Below, piece by piece: positions 4,201 to 50,420 of a DNA stretch of 64,000 bases (within the stretch, counting starts at the first letter, position 1; each line of letters starts with the position of its first letter). A program made the position numbers and the translations under genes. The notes beneath the pieces are model-generated. The model saw only the letters and a program-made list of their open reading frames with translations. It did no database searches and had not been told where the DNA came from. The DNA comes from Candidatus Marinacidobacterales bacterium (GTDB lineage Bacteria; Acidobacteriota; Vicinamibacteria; Marinacidobacterales; DATDRI01), in assembly GCA_965219415.1 (NCBI GenBank), contig CBDCNP010000001.1:96001-160000 (forward strand). Reading direction: 5' to 3'.

Positions 4201-4202
4201 TT

Positions 4203-20578: not shown

Positions 20579-20655
<77 letters not shown>

Positions 20656-20684
20656 ACTTTCTTTCCGATCCCACCTATTCGAAC

Positions 20685-20728
20685 TTCCCGAGAAAAAATC
20701 TTGCCCGGGCAAGTTTTTCGCGCGGGAG
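20685..20728. repeat. Islet left-end hairpin, copy 1
   Basis: CTTGCCCGGGCAAG palindrome in A/T tracts; homolog at 25243-25278. Confidence 0.7.
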
Positions 20729-20906
20729 TCCTCGTCGAACGGCCACGCCAACTCCTCGTAACCGGAGTCCTCACGCGTCATTGGTTGCCGCAAGTGATCG
20801 TCAAACTCGGTCTGGACCGGCGTCTGATTTGTCCTGAGGTTGGCACCCACGCTCAATGACGCCAGAAGTACAGCATGGGAGAGCAGCGTTTCTGTGGACT
20901 CGTGTA

Positions 20907-23900
20907 CTAGTTGGTGGGGACGAGTCGCTTCAATTCCTCGAACCAGTTCAGGACGAGGATGAACTCCGTCGAGGAAGTCTCGTCGCTCCCGCTTTCCTTG
21001 ATCATCAGGAAGCGCTCGCCATCGGGGGAGACGTCGTAGGTGCGTCCGACTGCGCCTCCACCCGGCGCGTAGTACCCCCCGAAGACCTCCTCGGCGGCAC
21101 CGGGAGCGAAGCTAGGCTCGGTCTGAACACCGACCGCCATCAGTCTTCTGCCGGGAGTCAGATAGAACAACTCGCGGCCGTCCGGAGCCCACAGAGGCCG
21201 CGCACCACCGCCCCTTGAGATCAGCCACTGTCCATCCTCGACGTTCGGGAACGGCCGCACGTAGATCTCGTATTGGCCCGAGGCGTTCGACTCGTAGGCC
21301 AGCCACAGGCCGTCGGGAGAGATCTCCCCGTTCCGTTCTGAGAACTCAGTCGCCAGAAGGGGCTCCGGAGAGCCCTCGAGGGAAAGCACGACGAGGTCGT
21401 AGTCTTGCTCATCCATTTCGAGAAACACCAACTGCCTCCCGTCCGGGGTGAAGGCGTATGGAAATTGCTGGTTCTCGCTTTCGGTCAGTCGCTCGACCGC
21501 GCCCGTGCCGTCGGCCGCTTTCAAGTAAAGGTTCGGTGTTCCGTCACGGTCAGAGGCGAACGCCACCTGCCTCCCGTCCGGCGTCCAAACTGGGTTGAGG
21601 TCCTGGCCGGGAGCGAGCGTGAGCCGGGTCAGTGTCTCGTGGGCGAAGTCCCAAATCCAGATGTCGTGCTCCTGGTCGGGCAGAAAGACGGCGAGACGGC
21701 CCCCATCCGGAGAGATACGTGGGTACACATAGGCACGCGGCTCGGCTGCCAGTGCCTCTTCTCTTCCGTCCCGATCCACCCAGACAACTGTGCGGACCGC
21801 TAGAGCACTACCGGTCACATAGACCAAGGCACCGGTGTCCGAAACGCTGAACTGTGCGGCAGCCAGTACAGGAGCGGTCATGACGCCCTCGGCCATGGGT
21901 ACGGGACCGCCCGTCACCTCGAGCTTGTCCACATCAAACGGCACGGCCAAAAGCGTTCCATCCAAGACGTAGACCAGGTGCCCCGTGGGTACGTAGCGGG
22001 CGTCTTTGCCGCTTTCGATCAGAACCTTTCTCTCACCGGTCTCGAGAGAATGCACCACGATCTGGGCGTCGTCCCATCCCGAACCGTCCCCGAGGGTAAA
22101 GAGCACGGCTTTTTCGCCCGGCAAGACCTGCGGGCCATGGCCGACCTCTTCCGTTGTGTCCAGCGGGATGAGAACCTCGGGCGCGCCTCCATCGGCGGAC
22201 ACCTGCATGATGCCAGCCCCACGTTCCCCGAAAACAATGGTGTCGTCGGCTCCCCACCGAGCGCCCAGAACGCCCCCAAAACCTCCAGCGTCACATAGGC
22301 GCACGGATGCGCCACCGCTGATGGCGACCTTCTTGAGCTGGCGCTCTGCCGAGAATCCTACCCACTCACCGTCGGGAGAAAAGAAGGGACCTCGAGCATT
22401 CTCGGTGCCCCGGATGGGAGTCGCCTCCGTTTGGTCCATGGCACGGAGGTAGAGCTGCTGGTTGGCACTGTACACGAGGCGGGTGCCGTCCGAAGAGAAG
22501 AGCCACGGCGGGACGACCCGTACCCGTCAGCCCGACGCCCGAGGGCAACGGAAGCGAAGACCGTACGACGGGTCGTGGCGTTTCCGCAGGACGCGTCACT
22601 TGCCAAACCGCGACGCCAGTGACGACCACCGCGAGCAACAGCGACAGCCCCCAGGCGAGGTCACGGCTTCTCGGCCTTGCCCCCACCGGCGTGGACACGC
22701 CCGACTCTGAACCGACCTCGGCGATCCAGTTCAACTCACGCTCCACATCACCAGCACTCTGCCACCGCTCATCCGGGTCCTTGGCGAGACAAGTCCGGAC
22801 CACGTGATCCAGCAAAGGCGGCGTCATCGTTTGAAGCGTCGACATGGCCGGAGGCTCGTGCTCGAGAATCGCAGCGATGAGACTTGCCTGACTCTTTCCT
22901 TCGAACGCTCGGCGGCCCGTCACCATCTCGTAGAGCACGGAGCCAAAAGCAAAGATGTCCGTGCGGGCGTCGGCTTCCTTGCCCTCGAGTTGCTCGGGAG
23001 CCATGTACTGGAACGTGCCGAGGATAGAGCCTTCTTTCGTAAGCGGCTGCGCTTCAGTGGGCAACGCCGATAGACCAGCGGCATCCGTTTCCGCGACCGA
23101 CATCTTGGCAAGACCGAAGTCGAGAAGCTTTGCGCCGGACTTTGTCAACATGATGTTCCCGGGCTTCAAGTCCCGATGCACGACGCCTTGGCGGTGGGCT
23201 TTGTCGAGAGCGTCGGCGATTTCAATTCCGTACTGCAGAGCCTGGTCGAGAGGAAGAGCGCCTTTCTTCAATCGGTCGGCGAGGGTGTCTCCTTCAATGT
23301 GCTCCATGACCATGAAGTCGATGCCGTTCTCGCTGCCGATATCGTGAAGGGTGCATATGTTGGGATGGTTCAGGCTCGAGACAGCGCGGCTTCCCGCTCG
23401 AATCTCTGGCGGACTTCGGGATGGCTGGCTACGTGAGAGGGAAGGACTTTGATGGCGACGGTGCGGTCGAGCCGAGTGTCTTTGGCTTTGTAGACCTCAC
23501 CCATACCACCTGCACCGAGAGGTGTCAGAATGGGCTTGATCCAGTTTCGTGGACACTTTCTGAAAGGCGGATACGATGTCCACAATGGCAAAGACAACGC
23601 AGCCCCGGCGACCCCGCCGGGAGTTTGATGACGAGTTTAAGGCAGGCGCGGTCCGGCTGGTGCTTGATGAAGGCCAGAGCGTGGGTCGGGTGGCCCGGGA
23701 GCTTGACCTCACCGAATCGGCGTTTCGCAACTGGGTCCGTCAGGCCCGGGCCGATCGGACGAAGGGCCGGACGGGCTTGACGGGCGTGGAACGCGAGGAG
23801 CTTCGGCGGCTCCGCAAAGAGAATCGGCGGTTGCGGGTGGAGCGCGACGTTTTAAAAAAAGCCGCGGCCTTCTTCGCGAAGGAGAGCGAGTAAGATTCGC

Positions 23901-24830
23901 GTTCATCCAGGCGGAGAAGGCCACCGTACCGGTCGTTCACCTGTGTCAGATTCTCAACGTCTCTCGGAGTGGCTTTTATGCCTGGGTACGTCGGCCGCCG
24001 TCGGCCCACGCGCGCCGGGACCGCCAGTTGCGCGTGTTGATTCGTGCCTCCCATGAGGCGAGTCGCCGCACCTATGGGAGTCCGCGGATTTATCACGACC
24101 TGCACGAGCAGGGGTATCGAGTGAGTCGGAAGCGGGTGATTCGGTTGAAACAGGCAGAAGGCCTCATTGCTCGAGTACGCAAACGCTTCAAGCGCACGAC
24201 GGTAAGCGGTCATGGCCAGCCCGTCGCGGCCAATGTGCTCGGGCAAGACTTCGTCGCCGATGCGCCGAACCAACGGTGGGTCGGGGACACGACCGAGTTC
24301 GTGATCGGCAGCGGCGGGAAGCTTTATCTCGCGGCGCTCCTCGACCTCTACTCGCGATTCCTCGTTGGGTGGGCCGTAAGTGCTATTAACGACCGTCACC
24401 TGGTTATCAAGGCGTTGCGGATGGCACTGAAACGTCGCCAACCGGCCGCGGGGCTCTTGCATCACTCCGATCAGGGCAGTCCGTATGCCAGCAAAGACTA
24501 CCAACGTCTCCTTGAGACGCATGGCATGACCGGGAGCATGAGCCGACGGGGCAACTGCTACGACAACGCCGTCATCGAGAGCTGGTTCTCCACGGTCAAG
24601 CACGAGCTTGGGGAGCATTTCCTCAGTTGCGGCGAGGCCAAGATGGCCCTCTTCGACTTCATCGAGGTATTCTACAACCAGAGACGACGACACTCGACCC
24701 TCGGCCAGGTCAGTCCGGCCGAGTTTGAACGACGGATGAGGACTTCGCCAGCTTAACTAAACCGTCTACGAAACCGGATCAAGCCCAGAATCTCATAGGG
24801 ATCCAGCTTAGTGCCGGGATTGAGTGCCAT
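20907..24830 (-). pseudogene. Ser/Thr kinase with TM and WD40/PD40 (TolB-like) propeller; IS3-interrupted and frameshifted
   Basis: MALNPGTKLDPYEIL|IS3|TPLGAGGMGEV; HRDLKPGN, DFG; frameshifts near 23370 and 22490; C-terminus VLNWFEELKRLVPTN. Confidence 0.9.
23531..24787 (+). mobile_element. IS3-family element (orfA 23576..23893, orfB about 23890..24756)
   Basis: TG...CA ends with IR; GAA target duplication; A7G slippery site near 23854; WVGDTT, HSDQG and ESWF DDE motifs. Confidence 0.95.
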
Positions 24831-24906: not shown

Positions 24907-24939
24907 GTGAAAATAGCCCCGTACAGGGTGAAAAGTCAA
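24907..24939 (-). promoter_or_regulatory. Conserved cassette promoter, copy 1
   Basis: Minus strand TTGACT-18 bp-TATTTT; upstream of the kinase start at 24830. Confidence 0.7.
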
Positions 24940-24990
24940 AAGAGGACGACGGCCTTGGATTCAACGGCTCGGGAGGATCAACTTCCCTGC

Positions 24991-25011: not shown

Positions 25012-25115
25012 CTGGTGGCAACTCAGGGCTACTGAGAGCAAAAGAGAAAGAGGGAAAGCCGCGTTTTTGTTGCTGTACGTTGCTCTGGGTGGTCATACGT
25101 GGCTCCTCCATCCCC

Positions 25116-25240
25116 CTCATAACCCAAAGGTCGCCAGCCTTCGCGCACGGAGTGACCGAATCTTGCGCTACGGCCGGCAGGCAGGTTCCCGCCTTCGCTC
25201 ACGACTCTCATCGTGACGTGAGCTACGGTTGGCAAACCAT
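25116..25240 (+). repeat. tRNA-fMet 3' fragment (att-like) split by two hairpin inserts
   Basis: CTCATAACCCAAAGGTCGC [insert 25135-25182] AGGTTC [insert 25189 to about 25238]. Confidence 0.88.
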
Positions 25241-25393
25241 CCCTCCCGGGAAAAAACTCGCCCGGGCGAGGTTTCGCGAGATCTGGCGATATTCCGGCTC
25301 CTACATTCCTCCAACTTCTCGTGGAGGCCGCCTCTTTTCGTCGTCAAATTGGGCAATCTTCGTCATGAGCCCTCGCCGATGAGATTCACTCCC

Positions 25394-27977
25394 TCAATCT
25401 TCCATGGGGACGAGGCGCTGGAGTTCTTCGAAGAAGCCCTCGATGATGACGACGCGAAAGTCCTCACTGTTCTCGACCATCAGAAAACGCCCGTCGGGGG
25501 CGACATCGTAGCGCTGGTGCCCCTCGAGGTCGAGAGTGTAAGGGCCATCAAAAAGCTCCACCGGGGAACTGATGCGAAGTTCCTGGCCGGGCTCCACCGA
25601 CGCCATCATCACCTTGCTGCCCCTGCGAAAGAAGATCTCTCGGCCGTCCGACGACCAGATAGGCGAGAGACCGCCATCGAATCGACACGGGTATCTTGGG
25701 CCCCGGTCCCGGAAACGGCACTACGTAGACCTGGAACTCGCCGGTCTCGTCGCTCACGTACGCGAGCCAGTTGCCGTCTGGTGAGAACCGGGCTGTTCTC
25801 TCGTTGTCCGAGCCCTCGAGCAGACGCTGGGGCTCACCGTCCCGGGGAAGCACCCATACGTCAGAGGCGGCGTCGAAGTAGGCAAGGTACTCCCCGTCGG
25901 GCGTCCATGATGTCGGCACCGGGTCCACCACCGCGCCGCTTGCGAGCAGCGTCTCCTCCTCGGCAATGCCGTCGGCCATCAGTGCGACGATCGTGCCACT
26001 TTTGTGGTACGTCGCGCGCCTACCCTCAGAATCCCAGATTGGGAAGTGTGTGTCCCCCGACGCCACTAGGCTCCGACTCCCTCGAGCGAGGTCGCCGGAG
26101 TAGACGTCCTCGTCGATGTTGAGGAGCGCGTTCCTCCCGTCACTGGACAGATCGATGTGCGAGTAGTTGCGGCGTTCACCGGGGATGGGAGTGGACCGCC
26201 CGTTACGATCTACCCACACCAGCCGTGCGGTCCCGTCGCTCCGTTCAGCGACGTAGACCAGAGTCCCGTCGAGCGCGAGGCGCGGACCGTAGGCGATCCC
26301 GTTGAGGATGGAAACGGCCGCACCCCTCATCTCGAGACTGCGACGTCAAAAGGCACGGCCCAGAGTTCATCCTGCTGGCGGAAGAGAAGGTGGCCCGAGG
26401 GAGAGTAGAGCGGCATCCTACCCCGCAACGGAAGTTCTTTCCATGTCCCGGCGACGAGGTCGGCAACAGCCAGGCGCTCTTCTTCAGGGCCGAGGATCGT
26501 GAACAAAGCGTGGCGACCACTCGGAAGGTGCGTCGGAAGAACGTGGCCTACCGCGTCATCCTGCGTATGGGTTAAAGGCTGCGGGGCACCCCCATTCGCG
26601 GGGACCCTGCTCAGCCCGTGGACGGAGGAACCGATCAAGATGCTGCCGTCGGAGCCCCAGCTCAGCCCCGCCGCGAACCACGAAATCTCACAGACCGGGT
26701 CGGGCTGCCCGCCCTGTATGGAGACGGTTCGCAGCTCGCTCCCGGAAAAGTAGGCCAAGCGCTCGCCGTCGGGGGAAAAGGCGATATTCCATGGGCCGGC
26801 AGGCCCAGAGAGGGGCGAAGCCTCGAGGCTATCGAGAGGTCGCAGGTAGATGTCGACGCGGTTCTCGACTCGTCCCGCGTAAGCAAGATGCCTCCCTTGT
26901 GGGGAGATCGTGACCCGAAAATCCGTCCAGTTGGGCACCGTCTGCCAAGGCAGATCGAGCGCAAAGCGACGCAGTGTGCGATCACCCTTTGAAGGGTTCG
27001 GTCCCCACAACAAAAGCCCTAGCCGAAACGAGTCCCAACCCGGCCGCGAGGACCCAGGGCAGTGCTTGCCGGACTCGAGCGGGGGTCGACTTCTCGGTCA
27101 AGCCGCTCGCACCCTCGCCTTGCTCGGACGTCTCCTCGAGCTTGAGTCGTACGTCGCCGATATCGCGCAGGCGTCGGCGCCGGTCTTTCTCGAGGCATCG
27201 CCTCAAGACTCTTGTCGTGCTCTGAGGCGCATCGGCGGGCAATCGATGCCAGTCCGGCTCATTCTTCACGACCGCAGCGAGAATGTCGGTCACGGTGTCG
27301 CCGTCGAACGGCCTTCGACTCGTCAACGTCTCGTAGAGACAGCACCCGAATGCCCAGATATCGGTTCGCTTGTCGACCGCTCTGCCACGAGCCTGCTCCG
27401 GGCTCATGTAAGGCGCCGTGCCCATGATGGCGCCGAGCGCCGTCCCCTTCGTCAGCGTGGGAGACCGTGAAATGTCGTCTGCAGATTGGTCTTCGACCGC
27501 CAACGCTTTGGCGAGACCGAAATCGAGAATCTTGACGTCGCCGTCGGGAGTGATCTTGATGTTGGCTGGTTTCAAGTCGCGGTGTACGACGCCCTTCTCG
27601 TGCGCGGCCTCGAGTCCTGCGGCGATCTGGCGAAAGATGGATAACGCTTCTTCGATCGCTAACGGTCCCCTGGTGATGGCTTCGGCGAGCGTTTCACCTT
27701 CGACGAGCTCCATCACGAGAAAGCTCTGATCGCCCGACGACTCGAGGCCGTGGAGCGTGTCGACGTTCGGGTGATTCAGACTCGCGAGAAGCCGCGCTTT
27801 TCGCTCGAACCGGGAAAGCCGCTCGGCATCTTCGGCAAACTCAGGCGAGAGTACTTTGATGGCCATATCGCGGCCGAGCTTACCGTCTCTCGCCCTGTAA
27901 ACCTCTCCCATCCCGCCTTTGCCAATGGGATCGAGGATCTCGTAGAGACCTAGCTTCTGCCCGGCTTCGAGTGCCAT
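25394..27977 (-). pseudogene. Ser/Thr kinase with PD40 propeller, frameshifted into about four pieces
   Basis: GKGGMGEV, HRDLKPAN, DFG; propeller pieces in successive frames. Confidence 0.88.
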
Positions 27978-27980
27978 CAG

Positions 27981-30644
27981 TCAGTTGGTGGGAACGAGCC
28001 GCTTCAATTCCTCGAACCAGTTCAGGACGACGTTGATCTGTGAGGCACCGCCCGTTGCCGACTCGACTGGCTGCAGCATTAGGAACCGCTGACCGTCCGG
28101 CCTGACATCGTAAAATGGGTAGCTGAAGCGGGTCGGCAAATACGGTCCTTCAAAAAGCATCTGAGGCTTTCCCGGCCTAAAGTCGGATTCTGCGTCCACT
28201 GCCACAGCCATCATGCTGCTCCCACTGCGGTAAAACATGCCTCCTTCGGGGTTCCAGACCACCTCGTGGCCTCCATTGGTCGAAATCTGCCACTTCGCAC
28301 CGGGGCCGGGATATGGCCGCACGTAAACCTCTCTCCGGCCCGACTCGTCCGAGGTATAGGCCATCCATTTCCCGTCCGGGGAAAACTTCGGTGCAGTTTC
28401 TTCGTAGCGTTCCTGCAGGAACGGGTGCGCCTCCCGATCCGCGAGATTCAGTACCCAGATGTCGCGCCCAGTCTCCGGGTTGGGTACGGTAAAGGCCAGC
28501 AGTTGCCCGTCCGGGGAAAACGACGCCGGGGGAGTTTGACGATCATTTGTCGTCAGCCGTTCCATGTCACCGCTGCCATCGGCCATTTGCCAGAACATGT
28601 TCAATGGGCCTTCACGGCTTGAAACGAACGCGATCCGCTGCGCGTCAGGCGACCAGACAGGAACAGTATTACGAACTCCCTCAAGAGTCAGTCGAGTAAG
28701 GGCGTCTCGGGAAACGTCATAAACCCAAACATGAAGCTCATTCTCTGCGATTCCGACGGCTACACGCTGACCGTCGGGAGAGATCTGAGGGTACTCGTAA
28801 AGCCGAGGGGGGGCGGGCAAGGACTCAGCCACACCCTGGCGATCCACCCAGACCAGTGTGCTCGCGAATTCCTCCACAGTGCCGGGAACATAGGCGAGTG
28901 TCCCCGTTCGGGAGAGGGCAAACTGCGCACCGCCACGGAGTGTACCGGGAGAACGAATACCTTCTATGACAGGCACCGGAAAACCAGAGATTTCCAGCCG
29001 ACCGGGATCAAATGGAACGGCCATCAAGGTTCCCGCCTGGTCATAGACCAGATGCCCCGTGGAAATGTAATGGGGGAACTTGCCCCGCTGCACGAGGAGC
29101 TTAGCCTCACGCGTATCGAGCCGCTGCACCATGATCGCCCCACCCAACACGAAGAGCACCGCTTGCCCTCCGGGCAGAATCTGCGGCCAGCTAGGAATGC
29201 CCTGGGCACTCGCATCCGAGGCCGTGAGGACCTCGGTCGTCCCGCCGTCTGCCGATACCCGAAGGAGGCCCAGAACACTGACCGCGCTGAAAATAATTCT
29301 GTCATCGGCTCCCCAACTTGCCCCCTGGGGACGTTCACTCGTCGAGGAGATGGTCACGACTGCTCCGCCGGTGATCGAAACCTTCTTCATTTCTCCTCCC
29401 GCAAAAAAGCCCACCCACCGCCCGTCGGAGGAAAAAAATGGGTTGTCACCGCCTTCAGTACCCAAAAGCCCCTCGTCTTCGAGGCTATTCATGGGACGTA
29501 GGTAGAGTCGCGGTGGATCGTTTCCCTTTTGCGCCGAGTAGACCATGTGGGAACCATCCGGTGAAAGAGCCAGGGGCGCGATGGTGGTCGGCGGAATTAC
29601 TTCGTCGGCTTGCAAGGCGACTACCGTGCGCGTAACCGGCAAGGACGGTACTGGCCAGAAATTCCATGCGGCAACGCTCGCAAAGATGGCTCCGACTCCA
29701 AGAGCGAGGGCCAACGGAATCGCACCTCGCCAGCTAGTACGGGACGAGACCCCTGCAGCGTCTCTTGCCACGCCTACTTCTGACCCACCGTCGGCAATCC
29801 ACCTCAATTCATCATGCAAATCCTTCGCGGATTGCCATCTTTCCTCTTGCGCTTTCGCCAGGCATTTCTTCACCACGCGGTCCAGAGCCGGGGGCGTCAT
29901 CGTCTGGACTTCAGTCATCGGTTCCGGCTCGGAGTTCATGATCGCGCCGATCAAACTGGCTTGACTCGTCCCTTCAAATGCCTTCCTCCCCGTCGCCATC
30001 TCATAGACCACGACACCAAAGGCGAAGAGGTCCGTCCTCGCATCGGCTTCCTTGCCTTCCAGCTGCTCAGGCGCCATGTACTGGAACGTGCCGAGAATTG
30101 AGCCTTCCTGAGTAAGAGGTTGTGCCTCAGTCGGCAACGCGGATAGCCCGTTGGCGCTCGTTGGGGTGGCCGACATCTTGGCGAGCCCAAAGTCTAGAAG
30201 TTTCGCCCCGGACTTCGTGAGCATGATGTTGCCGGGCTTCAAGTCTCGATGGACGACGCCTTGTCGGTGGGCTTTGTCCAGAGCGTCGGCGATTTGAATT
30301 CCGTACTGGAGAGCCTGTTCGAGGGGCAGGGCACCTTTCTTCAATCGATCGGCAAGGGTGTCTCCTTCGATGTGCTCCATGACCATGTAGTCAATGCCGT
30401 TCTCGCTGCCGATATCGTGGAGCGTACAGATGTGTGGATGGTTCAGGCTGGAGACGGCACGGGCTTCTCGCTCGAAACGCTCCCTTAGCTGCGCGTTATC
30501 CGAGAGGTGAGACGGAAGGACTTTGATGGCGACGGTGCGGTCGAGGCGAGTGTCTTTGGCCTTGTAGACTTCGCCCATGCCACCTGCACCGAGAGGTGCG
30601 AGGATTTCATAAGGACCCAGCTTGGCGCCGGTGGTTAATGACAT
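27981..30644 (-). CDS. Ser/Thr kinase with TM and WD40/PD40 propeller (intact, 887 aa)
   Basis: All kinase motifs intact; FSPDG repeats. Confidence 0.95.
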   Translation of the reverse strand: MSLTTGAKLGPYEILAPLGAGGMGEVYKAKDTRLDRTVAIKVLPSHLSDNAQLRERFEREARAVSSLNHPHICTLHDIGSENGIDYMVMEHIEGDTLADRLKKGALPLEQALQYGIQIADALDKAHRQGVVHRDLKPGNIMLTKSGAKLLDFGLAKMSATPTSANGLSALPTEAQPLTQEGSILGTFQYMAPEQLEGKEADARTDLFAFGVVVYEMATGRKAFEGTSQASLIGAIMNSEPEPMTEVQTMTPPALDRVVKKCLAKAQEERWQSAKDLHDELRWIADGGSEVGVARDAAGVSSRTSWRGAIPLALALGVGAIFASVAAWNFWPVPSLPVTRTVVALQADEVIPPTTIAPLALSPDGSHMVYSAQKGNDPPRLYLRPMNSLEDEGLLGTEGGDNPFFSSDGRWVGFFAGGEMKKVSITGGAVVTISSTSERPQGASWGADDRIIFSAVSVLGLLRVSADGGTTEVLTASDASAQGIPSWPQILPGGQAVLFVLGGAIMVQRLDTREAKLLVQRGKFPHYISTGHLVYDQAGTLMAVPFDPGRLEISGFPVPVIEGIRSPGTLRGGAQFALSRTGTLAYVPGTVEEFASTLVWVDRQGVAESLPAPPRLYEYPQISPDGQRVAVGIAENELHVWVYDVSRDALTRLTLEGVRNTVPVWSPDAQRIAFVSSREGPLNMFWQMADGSGDMERLTTNDRQTPPASFSPDGQLLAFTVPNPETGRDIWVLNLADREAHPFLQERYEETAPKFSPDGKWMAYTSDESGRREVYVRPYPGPGAKWQISTNGGHEVVWNPEGGMFYRSGSSMMAVAVDAESDFRPGKPQMLFEGPYLPTRFSYPFYDVRPDGQRFLMLQPVESATGGASQINVVLNWFEELKRLVPTN

Positions 30645-30660
30645 GGCTAGCCCGTTAAAC

Positions 30661-30693
30661 GTGAAAATATCCTTGCACAGGCTGAAAAGTCAA
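30661..30693 (-). promoter_or_regulatory. Conserved cassette promoter, copy 2
   Basis: GTGAAAATATCCTTGCACAGGCTGAAAAGTCAA, 16 bp from the kinase ATG. Confidence 0.7.
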
Positions 30694-30803
30694 TGAGTAG
30701 AGAGGCCTCGCCTCGCGCGCGACGCTGCTTGAACGACGACATCGTTCCATCACCTCTTTCCCGTAGTCGCAGTCGGCCATGTAAGCGTTATGGGTGGGGC
30801 ACA

Positions 30804-31739
30804 TCATTTGGATCTTTTCTGGGCTGTGGTCTCCGCCACGGGCATAGGGCGGCCGTCATTGAAGGTGGTTGCGAAACGGCGGTGATGGAATTGCAGTGCC
30901 TGCCGCTCGTTGCAGCGTCTACCTTGTGCGTCTACGAAGGTGCACTGATTTCCGTCCCGCTCGCTGACCGCGCGCCTCACCGGGGCCGGGATGTAGCGTG
31001 AGGATGGAGAGGCATCGGTTTTCTCGAGATCCCGTCTCGGCGCCCGCGTCTTCCCATAGCGCCTCGACTCCAACCTCTCCAGCTTCTCTGTCACGGCTTC
31101 GTCGATGATGACCGCTAGATCGCTGTCGGGCATGAGCTGGCGCAGGCGTTCGATCTTGTCCTTGAGCTCGGCGCTAGCTGTGAATTGGACTTTGTAACGT
31201 TCAGGTGCCAAGGGCTCCATTGGTCTCGGTCCGGGGGACCTCGGCGATCCAACTGCGTCTGGACGCAGTTGGGCTGCGGGCGCACTTTGTACCTTTCGGC
31301 CGGGAAGCTTGCGTATCGCTGGTGCAACATCGGGCTTCAGCGCAATCTCCGCCACCAGCTCTTCGATCTTTGCCTTGGACTTGTGCGCAGCGCGCGCCAG
31401 AACCGCTTCCCGATTTGCCTCCGTGAGGTGCGGAGACAGCTTGGCCGCGCCGGTCAGATGGATACGCCCGTCCTCCAGCATCCGAAGGAGCCCCGGGTGT
31501 TTTAGCGATGCGCGCGCGACTCGGATTCGGAGATAGGCCTCGGCCTCCGACATATGCAAGACTTCGGTGCAATAGGTGAACATCGACGAGCAAGCTTCAC
31601 GTGCGTAAAGACGCCGCTGGTCCACTTCGGCGATGTGTGCGACGAGCTCTGACTCGACGCGTCGTGATTGCTGCACTAGCCCAGACAAGCGCCGGAGCAG
31701 TTCATCATCCGAGATCGATTTCAATACCTTGCTAAACAT
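30804..31739 (-). CDS. DUF222-like protein with truncated C-terminal HNH domain
   Basis: SDDELLRRL...HIAEVDQRRLY; RYIPAPVRRAVSERDGNQC...LQFHH, then diverges before the HNH motif is complete. Confidence 0.7.
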   Translation of the reverse strand: MFSKVLKSISDDELLRRLSGLVQQSRRVESELVAHIAEVDQRRLYAREACSSMFTYCTEVLHMSEAEAYLRIRVARASLKHPGLLRMLEDGRIHLTGAAKLSPHLTEANREAVLARAAHKSKAKIEELVAEIALKPDVAPAIRKLPGRKVQSAPAAQLRPDAVGSPRSPGPRPMEPLAPERYKVQFTASAELKDKIERLRQLMPDSDLAVIIDEAVTEKLERLESRRYGKTRAPRRDLEKTDASPSSRYIPAPVRRAVSERDGNQCTFVDAQGRRCNERQALQFHHRRFATTFNDGRPMPVAETTAQKRSK

Positions 31740-32168
31740 CAGTCATCCTCCTAACCAGTAATATAACAACGCACTTTTTTTGGCCTTGAGTCGACGTGAG
31801 TCGGGAGGAACGTGCTCCGAGGGAGATTTTGTCTCGAAATGTGTGGGCGTTGGCTAGAGAGTCAACACGCGTGTCAGAGATACTGCGAAGATACTAGTAA
31901 GGTCTACAAAATTTGCTGTGGGATCTTGTCAAGAGAAAATTTCACCTTTTTACTTTGGGCTTCAGAGAGTCAAATCGGGCTTCCCGCCGTCTGCGGTAGG
32001 TTACCTGAGCCCCGTTCGTTTCTGGATCTCCTCGAACTTTGGGTCTCCTTTCAGGGATTCCCCTACCGGGGTCCAACGGAGAAAGAGAAACTCGCCGGCG
32101 CGCTCGGCATCGGCTTTCTGGAGCCACTCGTAAAGCTTATCGCGCTCGACCGGGTAGTCGCGTTACTC

Positions 32169-33323
32169 TTAAGTGTCCTTCGGGAAGCTCCCGACGGGAA
32201 AGGCCTTGACGTCACCGTTGGCGTGCGAGAACTCGAACTGGTTCTGGTAGAACTTCGGGTTCTTGCGCGTCCGCAGCTCCATCTCTATGACCTCGCCCGG
32301 CATGAACTGCTTTTGGTGCGTTCGCGAACCACTTCTCACCGCGTTGCCCTGCTCGTCGTACCAGTGCTCCGTCACCATAAACCGCGTTATCCAGTCCTTC
32401 GACACATTGCGCACCCGGATGGTGGTGATCACCTCGTCGCCTTCGACCTTTGTCTCGGGGGTGAGAATCTGAACTCTAGCGAGGCCGCGTAACTCTCGAG
32501 GCCGGTACGTTGGCTCGTTCCGGGCAGGCTGCTTGCTCTCGGCGGCGCCTTGGTTGTCGGCAACCTTCGAGGGCCCGGTGGCGTCTGCCGATTCTGAGGA
32601 TGGTTCACTCGCCTTGGCAGGCGCGGATGCCGCGGCCCGAGCCTCCGGGGTTGTCCCCTCGATGTCGAGGATGACCCAACGCGCGGGCTCGATGCGATCG
32701 CTCTCCGGCTCAGAGAGTTTGTACTTTCGAAGCACAACCCTATAGGGCAGCTCGTCGCCATCCCGGGGTTTGAGGCGGAGCAGCATTTCCGTCACCGCGA
32801 CGTCTCCGTCTAGGTTCTCGACGTTCACCTGGCGCATCACCGACTTGGTGGCGAGTCCGGTTTCACTACGTACGGCCCGTTTGAGCTCTTGAAATGTGCC
32901 TTCCTTCTCTCTGCGCTCCTCAACCAGCCTCAACCACTCCTCTTGAATCTCACCCATCTTTCCACGGAACTTGTAATCTGAACCCTCTCGCAGCTTCGAG
33001 ATGATCCGTTCGAGAGCATCCGGCTGGTCGCTGGCATACTTTTGGCCTGCCTCCACCGCGGCGTCTCGTTCCTTCGTGGCGGCCTCAAACCGGTCGAGGA
33101 GCTCCGGCAACGCGAAAGGCTCCGTTGATCGGGAGCTAACCTCGACCACCTTCCACGACTCTACCTCCACGGGAGGGCCGACGGCCGACATGGAAGCAAG
33201 CGTTGTAGGGTCGTTGGTCCGGGCGGCACGGAAGAATTGGTCTATGGTCGATTGCTCCGGACTGCCGCAGGCCCAGAGGCACGCAAGGGTCGCACTCGCG
33301 ATCCATTTCTTGAGTTTCGTCAT
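32169..33323 (-). CDS. Hypothetical lipoprotein
   Basis: AGGAGG RBS; MTKLKKW...LWAC lipobox. Confidence 0.75.
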   Translation of the reverse strand: MTKLKKWIASATLACLWACGSPEQSTIDQFFRAARTNDPTTLASMSAVGPPVEVESWKVVEVSSRSTEPFALPELLDRFEAATKERDAAVEAGQKYASDQPDALERIISKLREGSDYKFRGKMGEIQEEWLRLVEERREKEGTFQELKRAVRSETGLATKSVMRQVNVENLDGDVAVTEMLLRLKPRDGDELPYRVVLRKYKLSEPESDRIEPARWVILDIEGTTPEARAAASAPAKASEPSSESADATGPSKVADNQGAAESKQPARNEPTYRPRELRGLARVQILTPETKVEGDEVITTIRVRNVSKDWITRFMVTEHWYDEQGNAVRSGSRTHQKQFMPGEVIEMELRTRKNPKFYQNQFEFSHANGDVKAFPVGSFPKDT

Positions 33324-33531
33324 CTGATCCTCCTTTCGGAAACAGACAAACTCCGCACTTCGTGCGGGCACATTATCGTCGATGAAATCCGGCGGGTGCT
33401 GTGGGGCTCCTGGGGAGAACTCGCAGGAAGCTCCCGAGAAACAGGCGCAGCCCGAGCCAGCCTTTCCACCTGCTGACGACGTTCGGTGGCCATGGGAAAG
33501 CCTCCGACTGGTTTATGCTGGCCCAGTCAGA

Positions 33532-33564
33532 GGGAAAATAGCCCCGCACGGGCTGAAAAGTCAA
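33532..33564 (-). promoter_or_regulatory. Conserved cassette promoter, copy 3
   Basis: GGGAAAATAGCCCCGCACGGGCTGAAAAGTCAA. Confidence 0.7.
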
Positions 33565-33584
33565 AGGGGTCTCTGTCTTCAGAC

Positions 33585-33603
33585 TGTCCGTGTTTTGTCC
33601 GTG
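33585..33603. repeat. Arm-type direct repeat, family B (TGTCCGTG x2)
   Basis: 11-bp period, about 104 bp before the tRNA fragment; homolog at 44754-44770. Confidence 0.7.
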
Positions 33604-33706
33604 AACATGGAACTAAACCCGACAAAGCTGAACAAACAAAAAGCGGGAAAAGGCCTTAATTTGTTGGGATTCTTTGTTGGTGTTTGTTCCCTTTGGCAGC
33701 TTGGAA

Positions 33707-33798
33707 TGGGCCCATAACCCAAAGGTCGCAGGTTCCCGCCTTCGCTCCAACGTAGCAACATTCGGAGCTACGGCGGGCAGGCAAATCCTGCCCCCGCC
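33707..33798 (+). repeat. tRNA-fMet 3' fragment (att-like) with a 47-bp hairpin insert in the T-loop
   Basis: TGGGCCCATAACCCAAAGGTCGCAGGTTC [33736-33782] AAATCCTGCCCCCGCC. Confidence 0.92.
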
Positions 33799-34118: not shown

Positions 34119-35377
34119 TGAAGTGACCCCGCTTTCGTGGACAGGTTAAGAGTTAGGGATTCAAGCGTCGCGATAGTACCTCCTTTCGAATTGGATAGGC
34201 GAGCAATAGTCGATGGCGGAGTGTCGTCGTCGCGGGTTGTACCAGCCTTCGATGAAATCGAAGGTCGCCATGCGCGCCTCAGCGTGGTAGCGAAACGACC
34301 GGCGCTCGATCAGCTCGCACTCGAGCGTCGCGAAGAAGCTCTCGCACATCGCATTGTCGTAACAGTCCCCGACTGAACCCATCGACGGTCGCACCCCGGC
34401 CTCCCGGCATCGCTGGCCGAACGCTAGTGACGTGTACTGCGTGCCCTGGTCCGAGTGATGGATGACGTCGCCGGGCTTGCGTTGGAACAGCGCCATGTCG
34501 AGGGCGCTCAAGACGAGCGACGTCCGCAGGTGGGTAGCCATTGCCCATCCGACGATGCGTCGGCTGAAGGCGTCCAGCACGACGGCGAGGAACAAGAAGC
34601 CCGACCACGTGGGCACGTAGGTGATATCGGCGACCCACAGGCGGTCGGGCCGGTCCACCTCGAAATTCCTGTCGACGAGATCGGGGGCGGGACGGGCGTC
34701 GTCACAGCGAATCGTAGTGTGCGCCCTCTTGCGCCGGTGAACACCTTGAATGCCAGCCTCGCGCATTAGCCGCGCTACACGCTTGCGTGAGACGTGGAGC
34801 TCGTGTGTCTCTCGTAGCTCGTGGAGAATCCTCGGCGCGCCGTACGTGCTCCGCGACGCGGTGTGAATCGCCCGGATCTTCTCAAGCAACTCCGCATCCG
34901 ACACCGCGCGGGCCGACGGGGCACGCTCAAGCCACGCATAGTAGCCGCTGGCGGAGACGTCCAGCAGTCGGCACATCGTGGCAACCGGTAGTGAATCCTG
35001 GTTCGCCCTCACGAATCGGAAGGCTTCGGTGGTACCGACTCGGTCTCCCGAGCGAACCAGGCCGCGGCTTTTGAGAGGATCTCCCGCTCCAACCGTAGTT
35101 GACGGTTCTCCCGTCGCAGGCGGCGGAGCTCCGCACGCTCCTCACTCGTCAGACCGTCCTGCCTGCGACCCTCGTCGAGATCCGCCTGGTTCACCCAGTT
35201 CCGGATCGTCTGGCCCGAGGGCTCAAACTCTCGCGCCAGCTCTTCGGAGCCGCGGCCAGCTCGCACCAGCTCTACCATTTGGCGCCGGAATTCGGCCGCG
35301 TATCTGTTTCCCTGCTTTGACATCGTGGACTCCTGTCTCCCAAAGGATTAGGTGTCCACGAAAGCGGGTCAAGTCCA
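34119..35377 (-). mobile_element. IS3-family element (orfA 35009..35323, orfB 34161..35012)
   Basis: TG...CA ends with IR; GGAG target duplication; WVADITY, HSDQG and ESFF motifs. Confidence 0.95.
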
Positions 35378-35579
35378 GGAGGGCCATTAGAAACCAACAA
35401 CACCCGAGACAGAACACACCATGCTCGATGCCCATCCTGAATGCCCCCCCGACCCCGGGCCACCAATGCGTAGACAGAAAGCTAATCGGGGACCTGCAAT
35501 GGCGCAGGCATACTGTTTTTAGTGGGGTTAGTTGCCAGACACCGGCGGCTAGCAACAAACCCGAACCCAAGAGGTTGCT

Positions 35580-37014
35580 GAAAGTGTGCCAATCTTAGTT
35601 GGGAATCGAAACGGCTCCAAACCCCGTGGTTTGATGGCGTTGGACAAAACAAAATCAAGCCGCGAAGAAAGGAGCCGAGATGGGAAGTCTGCTACGTTCG
35701 GTCAAGAAACGCAAGAAGTCGCGTCGTTTGGGTGAGGTCGAGATGGTGAGGCACGAGGATTACGGGGAACTCGTGCTGGACGCCAAGGTAGAGATGATCC
35801 GTTGGTTGGTCCCCCTTGGTCTAATGCACGTTCACGAGTTGCTCGACGACGAAGTGAAGGCGTTGGCGGGAGAGCGATACTCTCGCAAGGACGAGCTGGA
35901 GCGCGGTCGCCGTCCCGGAAGCAACCCGGGCACGGTAGGGCTTGGCGGCCAGCGGGTACCGATCCGTGTGCCACGGGTTCGGAGCATCGAGGGAGGAGAG
36001 ATTCCGCTTCGCTGCTACGAGGCGGTGAGCCACGGCGGTGAGGTGAATGATCTTCTGCTGAAACGAGTTCTCTACGGAATCTCTTGTCGCAACTACGAGG
36101 CGGCAGCGGAAGCGATTCCGGGCGCCATCGGACTGTCGAGCTCAACGGTGTCCCGAGGGTTCGTGCAAGCGAGCGCTGCGAAGCTGCGGGAGATGCAGGA
36201 ACGGGATCTGACCGGCGAGGATGTGGTGGCGCTGTTTCTGGATGGGAAGACATTCGCCGAGGCAACGATGGTCGTGGCTCTGGGCATCACGCTTTGCGGG
36301 GAAAAACGCTTCTTGGGCTTCGTGGAGACGGACACGGAGAACGCGCAGGTGTTGACGCCGTTCCTGCGTTCACTGCTCGAGCGGGGACTCGATATCTCCC
36401 AGGGTCTGCTGGTGATCATCGACGGCGGCAAGGGTCTCCAAGCGGCAGTCAAGAAGGCATTCCGTAAGCGGGCCCTGATACAACGCTGCCAGTGGCACAA
36501 ACGTGAAAACGTAGTGAGCTACCTGTCCAAGGGCGAGCAGGCGTCATGGCGCAAGCGGCTCCAGTGGGCCTACAACAGGCCGGAGTACGAAGAGGCCCTC
36601 ACTGCGCTCGAGCAACTCCACGGTGAGTTAGAAGAGCGGAACCAATCCGCAGCTGGCAGCCTGGAGGAAGGCCTCGAGGAGACGCTGACGTTGCATCGAC
36701 TCGGCGTGCACGCGGTGCTGGGCCGTTCGTTCAAGACGACGAACTGCCTTGAGTCCGTCAATGCTCTCGTCGAGGAACGCTGCGCGAAGGTCGACCACTG
36801 GAAGAACTCGAGCCAACGCCAGCGCTGGTTGGCAACGGCGCTCGTAGACATCGAACCGCGCTTGAGGAAGGTGGTGGGCTACCGCCATCTTCCCAAGCTT
36901 CGCGAAGCTCTCAAGCGGGAACTGAAGATCGAGGCGGAGACATCAACCGTATCGAAGAAGAAGGTCGCTTAAACGTGAGCCGTGGAGAGTTTCAACTAAG
37001 AATGGGCTTGACTC
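35580..37014 (+). mobile_element. IS256-family element; transposase 35680..36972
   Basis: 8-bp TSD AGGTTGCT; imperfect IRs; LFLDG, IIDG, QRCQWH and TTNCLES motifs. Confidence 0.93.
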
Positions 37015-37491
37015 AGGTTGCTTGTCGACATCATCATGGTGGATAGAAGTTCTTCGCGCTCGAGCCCCCATTGCGCAACTACCGCAACCAGACTGAACGC
37101 TCCCCACATAGCCAAATAGCCGGCGATGAACGCTGTCGTGGTCGAATGAAGTCGGTGTGGACCGGAGGTTGGCCCCGCGTTTTCACCACGCTCCAGTCCC
37201 TTTCGGGTTACCGCAGCGTGCAAAAGCACCATAGGCGCTGCGCTCGGCAGCATCATTGCAATCATCATGAGCCACCACATCGAAAACATGACAAGCGCAT
37301 AGCCGGGCGTCCACGTGACCGGTGACATCAACGTGTCTTCGGTGCGCGAGCGCCCGATCGACGCCGTCATCGTCTCGTGGCCGGGCATGCTGGCCATGCT
37401 CGGTATCGATGGGTCCATACTCATTTGGGACGGAATAAGTACGGCCATCTCGTGGGGATACATGCCGGTGCCCGCCCCGGCTAAGAGATAC

Positions 37492-38859
37492 GGATGTGTC
37501 CCGAGGTCCGTGGAAAAAGAACGGTGCCCTCCACTCCGTCATCAGAGTATCATATCAGGCGGTAACCTCCGCGTGTTCGAGAACCTCGCTCAGACGTTGG
37601 TAGCCGTCGATGCGTCGTAGTTGAATCTGGCCAGAGGCGATAAGCCCAAACAGCAAAGCGACCGCAGACTCCTCGCTGGAGAACGACGCTTGGGTTTTCG
37701 TCCGGCGTCGAAACTCGCGGTTGAGATTCTCCAGAGCTTTGGTCGTTCGAATCGATTTCCACATGGCACGAGGGAATTCGTAGAAGGTCAGCCCAGCTGA
37801 TTACCGGCCTCCTCTAGGCTTCGGACGACGGCCGGCGCGAGAGGCGTCCACTTGGCGACGAGCTCGTCATAGGCTTTGCGAGCATCGAACCCGTTCTTGG
37901 CGTAGACGATCCGGTTGTAGTCACGCCGGAGCTCACGGCGTGCGTGCGCCGGGCAATGTTGGAGCAAGTTGGCGCGCTTGTGCTCGGTACATCGCTGCAA
38001 CCGGCACCCCGGCCACTTCTCCAGCGCTTTCGTCAGCCCCTTGTGGCCGTCGCTGATCACTAGCTTGGGAGCCCGGAGTCCTCGAGCCTGGAGTCCCTCC
38101 AGCACGGAGCCCCAATGCGTCGAGGCTTCGCTCACCGCCAGACGCAATGACAACAGACGTTTGTGCCCGTCTGGCGCGACCCCGAGCGCGGCCAGTACGG
38201 GTACGCTGATCACACGTTTCGCCATCCGCACTTTCAGGTGGAAGCCGTCCAGGTAAACGATCGCGTAGACCTCCTCGCTGAGAGCACGGTTCTGCCATTC
38301 CTCGAAGCGCTCCTTCAGCCGGCTAACCACGCGAGACACCGCGCTCTTCGATAGGTGCTCCTCACCGAGCAGTGGTTTCAGCGCTTTGCGGACCCGGCGG
38401 CTATTCGCGCCCGACAAGTACGTCCCCAAGAGCGCCTCGTCGACCTCACGAGTCCGGCGCGCGTACCGGGGCAACAGCTCGCTCCTGAACTCTATCGTTT
38501 CTCCCGTTTCCTCGTCTCGCACGCGGGCTCGTGGCACCCGGAGCTCGCGAGTTCCCACCGACGTCGTCACGCGACGGGTTTCGGCTCCGTTGCGATATCC
38601 ACGGCGGTCTTCCGCACGCTCGTAGCTACAACACCCCAGCGCTTGGTCGACTTCTTCCTCGAGCACAACCTCGATCGCCTCCAGTACCCGCATACGCAGC
38701 CGAAGTTGGACGAACTCCCGGTACTCGCTTACAGACTCCTTCAATATGGTGGTAGGCTTCTTCATGGCGTAATCCTCCTCCTCGCCTTTCCAGGCGCGGT
38801 TTCGTTTTGCTTAACCGGAGGTTACGCCATTCTTATTTCCACGGAAGCGGGACGGATCC
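37492..38859 (-). mobile_element. IS256-family element; transposase 37555..38765 frameshifted near 37790
   Basis: 8-bp TSD AGAGATAC; IR GGAT..GTCCCG...CCGTGGAAA; YLDG, ISDG and QRC motifs. Confidence 0.93.
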
Positions 38860-38971
38860 AGAGATACAGCCAACATGTTGTAATGACAGTCACGAGAACG
38901 CACGTCACTACTTGCCGGTCTCGACGAAGGACCGCCTCAAGCACGTTAGAAGAATTCACGGGAGCGCGGAC

Positions 38972-39640: not shown

Positions 39641-39703
39641 GTCGCCGAGCCTCGCCTGACCGATGTCCGCAGTCTGAATTGTGTGCAAAGTGATTACTCC
39701 TCA

Positions 39704-39772
39704 GAAAAGTCAAAGGGGGCGACGACCACATGGATTCAACTTGCCACACTGTGCGGGAATTGTGCGGGAATG
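39704..39772. repeat. Partial islet right-end module (family A)
   Basis: GAAAAGTCAAA...GACGAC...TGGATTCAAC...TGTGCGGGAA x2, homologous to 24930-25011. Confidence 0.8.
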
Positions 39773-39969
39773 GGATGCCTCTCGTGCCAATCGGTGGCCT
39801 GTTCGTAGGCATGGCCAACGCGCAGAGCATCGCTTCGCTCAGTGGCACCAACACAGGCTTGGCCTTCGCCGGAGTGGGTAGATCGACTTTCTGGCGTCAT
39901 CGAGCGTGGGTGCCAACATCAACCTAGCCAGACGCCGGTCCGGACCTAGTTGAGGTGCCGGCGGCCGTA

Positions 39970-42033: not shown

Positions 42034-42088
42034 CATAACCAAAAGGTCCCTGGGTTCAAATCCTGCCCCCGCCATCAACTTCTTTCCC
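42034..42088 (+). repeat. tRNA-fMet 3' fragment (att-like), uninterrupted but mutated
   Basis: CATAACCAAAAGGTCCCTGGGTTCAAATCCTGCCCCCGCCATCAACTTCTTTCC; similarity to the tRNA locus extends about 10 bp past CCA. Confidence 0.9.
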
Positions 42089-50400: not shown

Positions 50401-50420
50401 AAGGAAGCCAAAGTCATTCG

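Follow-up and report, generated by a model that had tools for sequence, protein, structure and literature searches.

We analyzed a 64,000-nt stretch of a Candidatus Marinacidobacterales genome (contig CBDCNP010000001.1, positions 96,001 to 160,000; hereafter, the window), in which a tRNA-Met gene is followed by three partial copies of itself, two of them interrupted by short inserts that can fold into hairpins. These inserts, which we call hairpin units, had been noticed in a sequence-only reading of the same DNA. The features on which the analysis rests are the following, where the 17-mer is the tRNA-Met sequence CATAACCCAAAGGTCGC:

20579-20655, + strand: intact tRNA-Met(CAT) gene (ARAGORN; Rfam tRNA, 66 bits)
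25116-25249, + strand: tRNA-Met 3′-half copy A (17-mer with 0 mismatches at 25118; reconstruction without units)
25134-25181, + strand: unit A1, 48 nt, CCAGCC-TTC-GCGCA-loop16-TGCGC-TAC-GGCCGG-CAGG (covariance model, 48.4 bits)
25188-25232, + strand: unit A2, 45 nt, CCCGCC-TTC-GCTCACG-loop13-CGTGAGC-TAC-GGTTGG (covariance model, 48.2 bits)
33707-33798, + strand: tRNA-Met 3′-half copy B (17-mer match; excision alignment to the intact tRNA)
33735-33781, + strand: unit B, 47 nt, CCCGCC-TTC-GCTCC-loop15-GGAGC-TAC-GGCGGG-CAGG (covariance model, 52.6 bits)
42034-42087, + strand: tRNA-Met 3′-half copy C (89% identity to 20613-20666 over 55 nt)

Displaced tRNA-Met halves and their hairpin units

The tRNA-Met gene is presumably of the initiator type, as judged from two textbook features, the C1xC72 mismatch and an anticodon stem with GGG/CCC. 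It is the sole intact tRNA gene of the window, carries no hairpin unit at its 5′ or 3′ end, and was used as the empty-site reference. Further downstream, and with its orientation unchanged, its 3′ part is repeated three times: the 17-mer is found exactly at 25118 and 33713 and with two mismatches at 42034, while an acceptor-side 16-mer is found exactly at 33783 and 42058. Copy A begins at the anticodon loop and is interrupted by units A1 and A2, and its acceptor-side remainder has diverged (CAAACCATCCCTCCCGG). Copy B, which extends from the anticodon stem to base 72, is interrupted by unit B. Both interrupted copies have kept the anticodon stem-loop block in full (17/17), and their right flanks differ at 5 of 17 positions. 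Copy C, absent from the sequence-only reading, is uninterrupted and without a unit; it has a 1-nt insertion and the two mismatches in the 17-mer, shares in addition about 11 nt of the sequence lying 3′ of the intact gene, and probably represents the earliest of the displaced 3′ halves. Beginning as they do at the anticodon loop, the halves resemble the attachment-site (att) remnants of islands, and it is from this shape that we infer an att label for them.

The three units have a common scaffold, CCNGCC-TTC-[GC-stem/loop/stem-GC]-TAC-GGCN'GG-(CAGG). A 6-bp outer stem, CCNGCC/GGCN'GG, encloses the inner stem, and TTC and TAC form a 3x3 internal loop within what is a single long hairpin. The inner stems and their TTC/TAC flanks had been recognized previously, while the outer stem had been overlooked. 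This outer stem carries one A.C mismatch in A1; in A2 it has decayed, and the CARG tail is missing. The motif CCTTCG-N15-40-CTACGG is found three times in the window against 0.30 expected, and none of 100 shuffles reached three. Together with the common scaffold, this count bears out the idea that the inserts are related, discrete entities. When both strands were searched for TTC-[stem of at least 5]-loop-TAC, only A1, A2 and B matched. The covariance model, run with filters off, also recovered only these three, all of which are in its training set, and its next-best match in the window scored 10.5 bits (E 1.5). The window therefore holds no other copy, in agreement with the sequence-only reading.

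Excision of unit B, as either 33736-33782 or 33735-33781, since its boundary slides by one C, leaves a sequence with 44/45 identity to the tRNA at 20607-20651, which confirms that removing this insert restores the tRNA. When both units were cut from copy A, CATAACCCAAAGGTCGCAGGTTCAAAC was restored, which is the tRNA sequence through the T-loop; the rest has diverged. A1 sits in the 5′ strand of the T-stem, at a boundary that can be placed at 48/49, 49/50 or 50/51 because a repeated GC allows it to slide by two, whereas A2 and B occupy one and the same site in the T-loop, at 55/56 or 56/57 (GGTT^CAAA). No target duplication was observed beyond one or two ambiguous bases. The ends previously given for the inserts differ from ours by 1-6 bases, as the C or GC repeated at the junctions lets the boundaries slide; insertion at a C^A step is one of several boundary readings that the sequence allows. 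The left flanks (GGTT, GTCG and the discriminator base) have no fixed word in common, and the right flanks start with C(C)A. The outer-stem sequence CCCGCC of unit B recurs 10 nt downstream, in the acceptor strand of the tRNA.

All three units lie within approximately 135 nt of tRNA-fragment DNA out of 64,000, a placement with a probability of about 1e-8, (135/64000)^3, if the units had been placed independently and at random. The inner stems and loops of A2 and B are unrelated, and these two may represent either independent hits on the T-loop or copies by descent. As single-stranded DNA (ssDNA), the units fold only modestly better than their shuffles, with z values of -0.06, -1.8 and -3.1 for the + strand and -1.9, -1.8 and -4.5 for the - strand, which thus does somewhat better. 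No T run follows any of them, and the units consequently lack the combination of a GC-rich hairpin and a T run that identifies an intrinsic terminator.

A hairpin family at tRNA and tmRNA gene ends

Scanning public genomes once for the pattern GCCTTCGC-N16-28-GCTACGGYNGGCA returned at least 124 loci, and none of those listed was recognized as belonging to the genome of the window. The 124 listed loci (numbered with the prefix L), 80 of which carry 2-kb flanks, are the basis for all the counts in this section. They contain 133 pattern matches, and in 46 of these an inner stem of at least 5 bp abuts TTC/TAC, where the chance level of about 1 in 64 is our own estimate and not a computed control; some of the remaining matches are chance matches in coding DNA. 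A strict structural scan of the same loci gave 77 matches (69-70 distinct), against none in shuffled loci. The outer stem, which the scan pattern had fixed only partly, is complementary in 66 of 70 units, and its free position covaries (C:G 37, A:T 26, G:C 3, unpaired 4). The tail reads CAAG or CAGG in 58/70 units, the pattern having forced CA only, and is followed by GC-rich sequence. In a 49-row alignment, 94.6% of the cells pair compared with 79.4% in shuffles, a level reached by 0 of 500 of them; as the rows were chosen for pairing, the figure is partly circular.

The covariance model gave 127 hits at E <=0.001 in 96 of these loci; they come from 237 kb of DNA that had been fetched for holding a unit and therefore provide no density figure. 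Thirty-five of the hits fall outside the scan pattern, yet keep CCnnCC-TTC-GC...GC-T(A/T/C)C-GGnnGG-CARG, and the model hits revealed further compensated outer stems (CCAACC/GGTTGG, TCGGCC/GGCCGA, TCCGCC/GGCGGA and CCATCC/GGATGG). Inner stems measure 4-13 bp and loops 3-36 nt. The first 3-6 bases of the unit are repeated after the tail in 32 of the 70 units. Copies within one contig are near-identical (three identical ones in L025; also L013/L014), while between genomes only the base of the hairpin is common; near-identity within a contig combined with differing tops between genomes is the pattern of copy-and-paste. Units were also found in tandem arrays away from tRNAs (L013/L014, L073 and L123), and inspection by eye placed them both sense (about 4) and antisense (about 5) to neighbouring genes with Pfam support. 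The two orientations and the arrays away from tRNAs are more easily explained by a DNA element than by an RNA signal.

According to the record labels, the loci belong to Acidobacteriota (many of them Vicinamibacterales), Verrucomicrobiota, Planctomycetota, Elusimicrobia, candidate-phylum bins and others. One contig labelled Bifidobacteriaceae (L010, 1,845 nt) has its tRNA-Gly 3′ end and the adjoining unit in common with the acidobacterial loci L051, L055 and L087; this contig is probably mis-binned, as some other short contigs may be too, and the list of phyla should be read with that caution. In a verrucomicrobial locus (L005, 1980-2284), the unit behind a tRNA-Thr leads into an array of shorter relatives, CCGCCTTCGCCAAG...GGCTACGGCGG. 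This short form may represent a subfamily common in Verrucomicrobia, since L012, L024, L057, L065, L076 and L091 look alike. A literature search by motif strings and words, which left subscription journals mostly outside, found no description of the hairpin element, and a BLASTN search of a two-unit array against 72,556 plasmids gave only chance matches in coding DNA (E 0.08-0.9). The family is real, widespread, with members in many soil and freshwater bacteria, and apparently undescribed, with a hairpin whose base is conserved and whose top is free.

To relate the units to tRNA genes, we used ARAGORN, which identified 56 tRNA/tmRNA genes in 33 of the listed loci. The sequence NCCTTCG stands directly 3′ of CCA, on the same strand, at 34 of the 56 genes, and in these flush units the CCA of the gene forms the first three bases of the outer stem. 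The reversed unit, CGAAG, stands directly 5′ of base +1 at 11/56 genes. Against this, CCTTCG has a background frequency of 0.0009 per position and strand. The proposal that the elements target tRNA-like DNA thus finds strong support outside the window. Many of the flush units are neighbours that the scan pattern had not selected (ACC and TCC variants), and flush units occur at no fewer than 14 tRNA species as well as at tmRNA. For the latter, L048 contains an Rfam tmRNA (172.9 bits) at 2048-2402 on the - strand that adjoins a unit at 2001-2047, and L056 is a second tmRNA case.

Units in both orientations fill the spacers of the acidobacterial Thr-Tyr-Gly-Thr-tuf operon. Where a unit lies at a tRNA 5′ end, bases 1-5 of that tRNA form its outer stem, and the partner strand matches the particular tRNA (CCCGCC/GGCGGG for Gly, TCGGCC/GGCCGA for Thr). 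Units are present at the 3′ ends of tRNA-Tyr and tRNA-Gly in every orthologous operon examined (5 to 7 species). The spacer between tRNA-Thr(ggt) and tuf measures 48 nt in L041, where it has no units, and about 93-245 nt in L038, L044, L051 and L055, where it has them; these spacers are too diverged for an alignment to fix boundaries, so that the length contrast alone is usable. In L087, no unit follows tRNA-Thr(ggt), and the locus ends 34 nt further on, before the spacer length can be read.

In a few loci, the units are accompanied by extra pieces of tRNA. In two of them, from Acidobacteriota (L003 and L074, 1996-2100), a forward unit stands after a tRNA-Arg, then comes a short unit in reverse orientation, and finally 13 nt that duplicate the 3′ end of the tRNA. 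In L017 (1990-2110), a tRNA-Arg(tct) without CCA is followed 140 nt later by a CCA-bearing 3′ fragment of tRNA-Arg flanked by one reversed and one forward unit. The last 13 nt of the tRNA recur near just 5 of the 56 genes, and on this count we rejected a 'mini-island' as the general explanation.

Search for a linked enzyme and gene content of the window

Pfam and NCBIfam were run on 207 frames of the window (19 + 43 + 145) and on 8 open reading frames (ORFs) adjoining the units. No tyrosine or serine integrase, no Phage_integrase domain and no Y1_Tnp, RAYT or HUH transposase was found among them. Outside the window, Pfam assigned the 120 ORFs beside units (55 loci, from 58 unit-bearing ones) to ordinary genes, with 2 integrases, 1 rve and no Y1_Tnp. 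Clustering of the 668 ORFs of the 58 unit-bearing loci gave orthologous neighbourhoods only, such as the tRNA-tuf operon, and no recurrent partner. In one locus (L027), a P4-like integrase gene adjoins a tRNA 3′ half, and the units lie beside the CCA of this half, on the chromosomal and not on the island side.

Known RNA families gave no further lead. At the gathering threshold, Rfam 15 matched only the tRNA in the window; the region 25050-25300 had 0 matches at E <=10, and eight unit-bearing loci had, at E <=1, only tRNA/tmRNA and chance matches of the microRNA type. The mismatches in the inner stems (G.T 4, A.C 2) are uninformative as to strand or an RNA role.

The tRNA copies delimit the following stretch:

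20656-42033: three segments between tRNA copies, of about 4.5, 8.5 and 8.2 kb (Pfam, self-BLAST, composition)

These segments hold Ser/Thr-kinase/PD40 genes, several of them fragmented, ORFs without a family, DUF1326, a split PpoB2, a degraded IS3-like stretch, and one IS3-family (rve) and three Mutator-family transposase genes. Their GC content (0.57-0.64) is the same as that of the flanks. The tRNA 3′ direct repeats expected of island att sites are present, and an integrase is present in none of the three segments, which may be decayed islands. The sequence-only reading had suggested that the units disable the att cores and lock the cassette in place. This idea finds no support: the window frames include no integrase, and both interrupted copies, with their units, are preserved on the 5′ side of these units in the anticodon stem-loop block, where strand exchange by integrases of the anticodon-loop type is expected.

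Several features of this region were noted in passing. Terminator-like hairpins of the form AAAAAA-CTYGCCCGGGCRAG-TTT follow both the intact tRNA (20690-20730) and copy A (25250-25285), so that the first two segments have homologous left ends. A 32-nt motif, GAAAATAGCCCCGYACRGGSTGAAAAGTCAAA, is repeated at 24909-24940, 33534-33565 and 44700-44731 and, more weakly, at 30655-30693 and 50352-50459. Its reverse complement resembles a sigma-70 promoter (TTGACT ... TATTTT) whose spacer contains a small hairpin; the copies lie upstream of minus-strand genes, and two of them 150-180 nt before the tRNA-half copies A and B. The Ser/Thr-kinase/PD40 beta-propeller family is represented at 20907-23313, 25548-27977, 27981-30644 and 3744-5372. 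In the copies beside the intact tRNA and copy A, the kinase and the propeller are in separate frames, so these copies are probably pseudogenes, and 22799-23524 is 80% identical to 29872-30598 within the same family.

The stretch 34161-41386 is rich in insertion sequences, with an IS3-family element (HTH_Tnp_1 and rve) and Mutator-family genes at 35680-36972, 37788-38765 and 40112-41386; 23740-24756 is similar to that IS3 element, lies in the opposite orientation and looks degraded. The gene for the copper chaperone PpoB2 is found in two pieces, 35226-35594 and 36996-37463, which correspond to profile positions 76-143 and 2-80 and flank the Mutator-family transposase gene at about 35680-36972; the gene appears to have been split by the insertion. 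Internal duplications are present at 3701-4209 and 6813-7318 (84%, 509 nt) and at 7862-8634 and 8838-9610 (78%, 775 nt), the latter being tandem alpha/beta-hydrolase genes. Finally, the two strands of 62397-63812 each have an open frame over the same DNA, one of 468 and the other of 469 aa; neither has a Pfam match.

Possible origin of the units and comparison with known systems

The anatomy of the units, the family with its covariation, the clean insertion and the association with tRNA ends were all observed directly. Our preferred reading, in which our confidence is evenly balanced, is that the three inserts are copies of a non-autonomous mobile hairpin of about 45-50 nt, of the same kind as repetitive extragenic palindromic (REP) sequences or MITEs (miniature transposable elements with inverted repeats), which is moved in trans and strongly prefers tRNA-gene DNA. 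Its mobility in trans, single-strand intermediate and class of enzyme, and the role of selection, are what we infer. In this model, the unit would fold as ssDNA into one hairpin composed of the outer stem, the 3x3 TTC/T(A)C loop, the GC closing pairs and the CARG tail. An enzyme encoded elsewhere would recognize the conserved hairpin base in ssDNA and move the unit, inserting it without target duplication (as in the window) immediately 5′ of a stretch that matches the first bases of the unit: a C for the window copies, CCA at the ends of tRNAs and as much as 6 nt at other sites (3-6 nt in 32/70 units). Our first guess for this enzyme would be a structure-specific ssDNA transposase of the HUH/Y1 (IS200/RAYT) type, ranked first because of the mismatched hairpin, the lack of duplication and a target that resembles the end of the element; a tyrosine recombinase acting on a folded site would be the second. 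In working tRNA genes, only insertions that spare the tRNA would survive, flush after CCA or reversed and flush before +1, and the CCA of the unit could even replace that of the gene. The non-functional tRNA-Met 3′ halves would tolerate insertions in the T-arm, which could then persist.

Several observations weigh against such a mobile element. The tRNA-specific outer stems at 5′ ends are not predicted by a generic mobile unit; they would need homology-guided targeting or later compensatory evolution, and the latter would point to a function. The retention of units at the ends of tRNA-Tyr and tRNA-Gly could likewise mean that a host function is under selection. The units have no linked transposase or recombinase, in the window or among the unit-flanking ORFs, and no recurrent protein family neighbours them in the 58 unit-bearing loci. 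The hairpin base is constant over several phyla, which is unusual for REPs; these normally co-evolve with the RAYT of their own species, according to the part of PMC6006769 available to us. The 3-6-base repeat after the tail in 32/70 units, which none of the window copies has, blurs the boundaries of the element. The copy number of the unit is known for the 64-kb window only (3), and A2 and B might stem from a single insertion rather than from two.

A bolder form of the mobile-hairpin reading, which we offer tentatively and regard as rather doubtful, is that the units form a multi-phylum class of minimal single-hairpin DNA that homes to tRNA and tmRNA termini, with the 3′ strand of the outer stem, GGCN'GG, as the guide. 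This strand would pair with CCA-NCC after a tRNA or with the complement of tRNA bases 1-5, the insertion would regenerate the tRNA end exactly, and units could later have been co-opted as leader-trailer helices of tRNA operons.

Alternatively, the hairpins might be leader and trailer structures of tRNA precursors, with a role in processing, termination or protection, that pair with the CCA end and with bases 1-5, the dispersed copies being stray or decayed. We consider this unlikely, and keep an RNA-processing role, original or acquired, under consideration because of the tRNA-specific stems at 5′ ends, the long retention and the cross-phylum base. Such a role would agree with the flush position after CCA in 34/56 genes, always on the tRNA strand, with the retained units of tRNA-Tyr and tRNA-Gly, whose stems are compensated (CCAGCC/GGCTGG versus CCAACC/GGTTGG), and with 5′-end stems that match tRNA-specific bases; moreover, the leader GCGAAG plus G1 is exactly complementary to the trailer CCTTCGC, and the resulting helix could enclose the tRNA. 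However, both orientations occur within one tRNA operon transcript, where the reverse complement would be a different RNA motif, and the motif also lies antisense to genes, forms arrays remote from tRNAs and interrupts the T-loop and T-stem of dead tRNA halves. Nor does a U run follow the hairpin, the intact tRNA of the window has no unit, stem mismatches show no excess of G.T over A.C (4 versus 2), and no Rfam family matches.

The shape of the window copies, tRNA 3′ halves from the anticodon loop onwards, is that of classic att remnants, and would suit units that are att arms of tRNA-integrating islands, or gene-less mini-elements similar to cis-mobilizable elements (CIMEs), moved by tRNA-specific tyrosine integrases; the window units would then have arrived inside the tRNA-like arms of islands. 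The tRNA-Arg layout of L003 and L074, which looks like an integrated element of about 95 nt, and the P4-like integrase beside the tRNA 3′ half of L027, with units at its CCA, point in the same direction. We nevertheless judge this explanation improbable. Integrases make up 2 of the 120 flanking ORFs (55 loci) and are absent from the 207 window frames, the L027 units are on the chromosomal side of the displaced half rather than on the island side, and an arm with a unit in its T-loop would destroy the tRNA that it enters. Flush tRNA ends without a second att copy already look like the usual case, as an extra copy of the last 13 nt lies near 5/56 genes only. Folded attC-type sites, which a dedicated tyrosine recombinase with a short core would recombine as ssDNA hairpins, seem to us a long shot. 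The outline matches, in that a 3x3 unpaired spacer separates a conserved outer box from a conserved GC inner box and the top, with its loops of 3-36 nt, is free, and the direct repeats of 1-6 nt at both junctions are what a shared crossover core would leave; but the outer boxes CCNGCC/GGCN'GG are unlike the attC consensus, no integron integrase or other recombinase adjoins the units, a stem of about 14-17 bp is short for two recombinase monomers, and no gene cassettes lie between units. That chance palindromes or a local duplication without wider meaning produced the pattern is next to inconceivable: there are only three copies in 64 kb, and A2 and B share a tRNA position and could be copies by descent, but the motif count exceeds that of every shuffle, and the scaffold recurs, with covariation, in more than 100 loci of other genomes.

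If the mobile-hairpin reading is correct, tRNA and tmRNA ends in several poorly studied phyla share a recognizable hairpin module that annotation ignores and that affects tRNA 3′-end calls, the detection of islands through att sites and the interpretation of tRNA precursors. The units would be a tractable bacterial example of a repeat directed with nucleotide precision to structured RNA genes, with a candidate guide built in. The responsible enzyme could be found by phylogenetic profiling, and the design of conserved base and free top, maintained over phyla, would provide a covariance signal for the substrate rules of this enzyme. In the window, the tRNA 3′-half copies would be old, non-functional remnants turned landing pads rather than active att sites. 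Should the guide reading hold as well, the units would be a bacterial counterpart of the 'safe-haven' targeting of tRNA genes by eukaryotic retrotransposons.

Among known systems, the units can be compared with GTAG-type REP/REPIN sequences and their RAYTs (E. coli REP/BIME, Pseudomonas REPINs and Stenotrophomonas SMAG), which are likewise short, GC-rich, imperfect palindromes, non-coding and repeated. As with REPs, units occur as singletons, inverted pairs and tandem groups and have a conserved foot with compensated stem changes, and some published REPs are described, in the parts of these papers at hand, as 'long hairpins' with a bulge between two stems (PMC6006769, PMC3733652). The rule given there for GTAG REPs is GT[AG]G located 0-2 nt 5′ of the hairpin foot (PMC6006769; the position at the foot also in PMC3733652). 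On the - strand, the units read CCNGCC-GTA-GC(stem), which places GTAG at the foot of the inner stem, inside the full hairpin. The GTAG noted on the reverse strand is thus real, but it is internal, between the stems and not at the foot, and the resemblance to GTAG REPs is loose. Such REPs usually number more than 100 per genome in extragenic DNA and share their genome with a RAYT or other Y1 HUH gene that the repeats typically flank; the 64 kb of the window has 3 units, all in a single type of location. The units differ further in that their base is common to several phyla, while REPs are species-specific, in that no RAYT gene was seen with them (window frames and 120 unit-flanking ORFs), and in that they favour tRNA and tmRNA gene ends, a targeting that goes unmentioned in the accessible portions of PMC3733652 and PMC6006769; in these portions, the former names tRNA only in tRNA synthetase and pseudouridine synthase genes, and the latter has 0 occurrences of 'tRNA'. 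Class 3 Y1 HUH genes of Planctomycetes and Acidobacteria are associated with 'CnGA-foot' hairpins, about 600 of them in Solibacter usitatus, according to the available part of Quentin et al. 2018 (PMC6006769). They share the phyla of the units, but the hairpins listed in that part of the paper (e.g. CCGAGCCGCGACCGTAAGGGAGCGGA) have no motif in common with them.

The window units resemble IS200/IS605 elements in lacking target duplication, in having a hairpin with unpaired bases and in a target that matches their terminal bases, and the target could form pairs with a guide-like complementary segment, the outer stem's 3′ strand. Members of that family insert 3′ of a fixed tetra- or pentanucleotide without duplication and have distinct left- and right-end hairpins. 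The units, in contrast, have a single hairpin without distinct ends, no transposase, a variable junction identity (1-6 nt) and no strand bias in the tRNA operon. Like attC and other folded ssDNA sites, they have conserved boxes that pair, a spacer that does not and a terminal structure that varies; integron attC sites are defined by the boxes RYYYAAC/GTTRRRY and an adjacent intI/attI platform, whereas the units come without consensus boxes, integrase or cassettes.

The tandem tRNA 3′ halves of the window and the few loci in which a pair of units is bracketed by tRNA 3′-end repeats recall tRNA att sites. The units, however, interrupt or abut the att identity blocks, and most flush units have no second copy (5/56). 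Retrotransposons that target tRNA genes exist in yeast and Dictyostelium, and Rickettsia palindromic elements (RPEs) are small palindromic elements found also inside RNA genes. Both are similar to the units, as selfish elements with a 'safe haven' at tRNA genes and, for RPEs, as small palindromes; they differ in size, mechanism and host, and none of them is known to sit flush at a CCA end. Compared with these systems, REP-like structured repeats as such are already known, and what is new in the units is the nucleotide-precise association with tRNA and tmRNA ends and a hairpin base shared across phyla.

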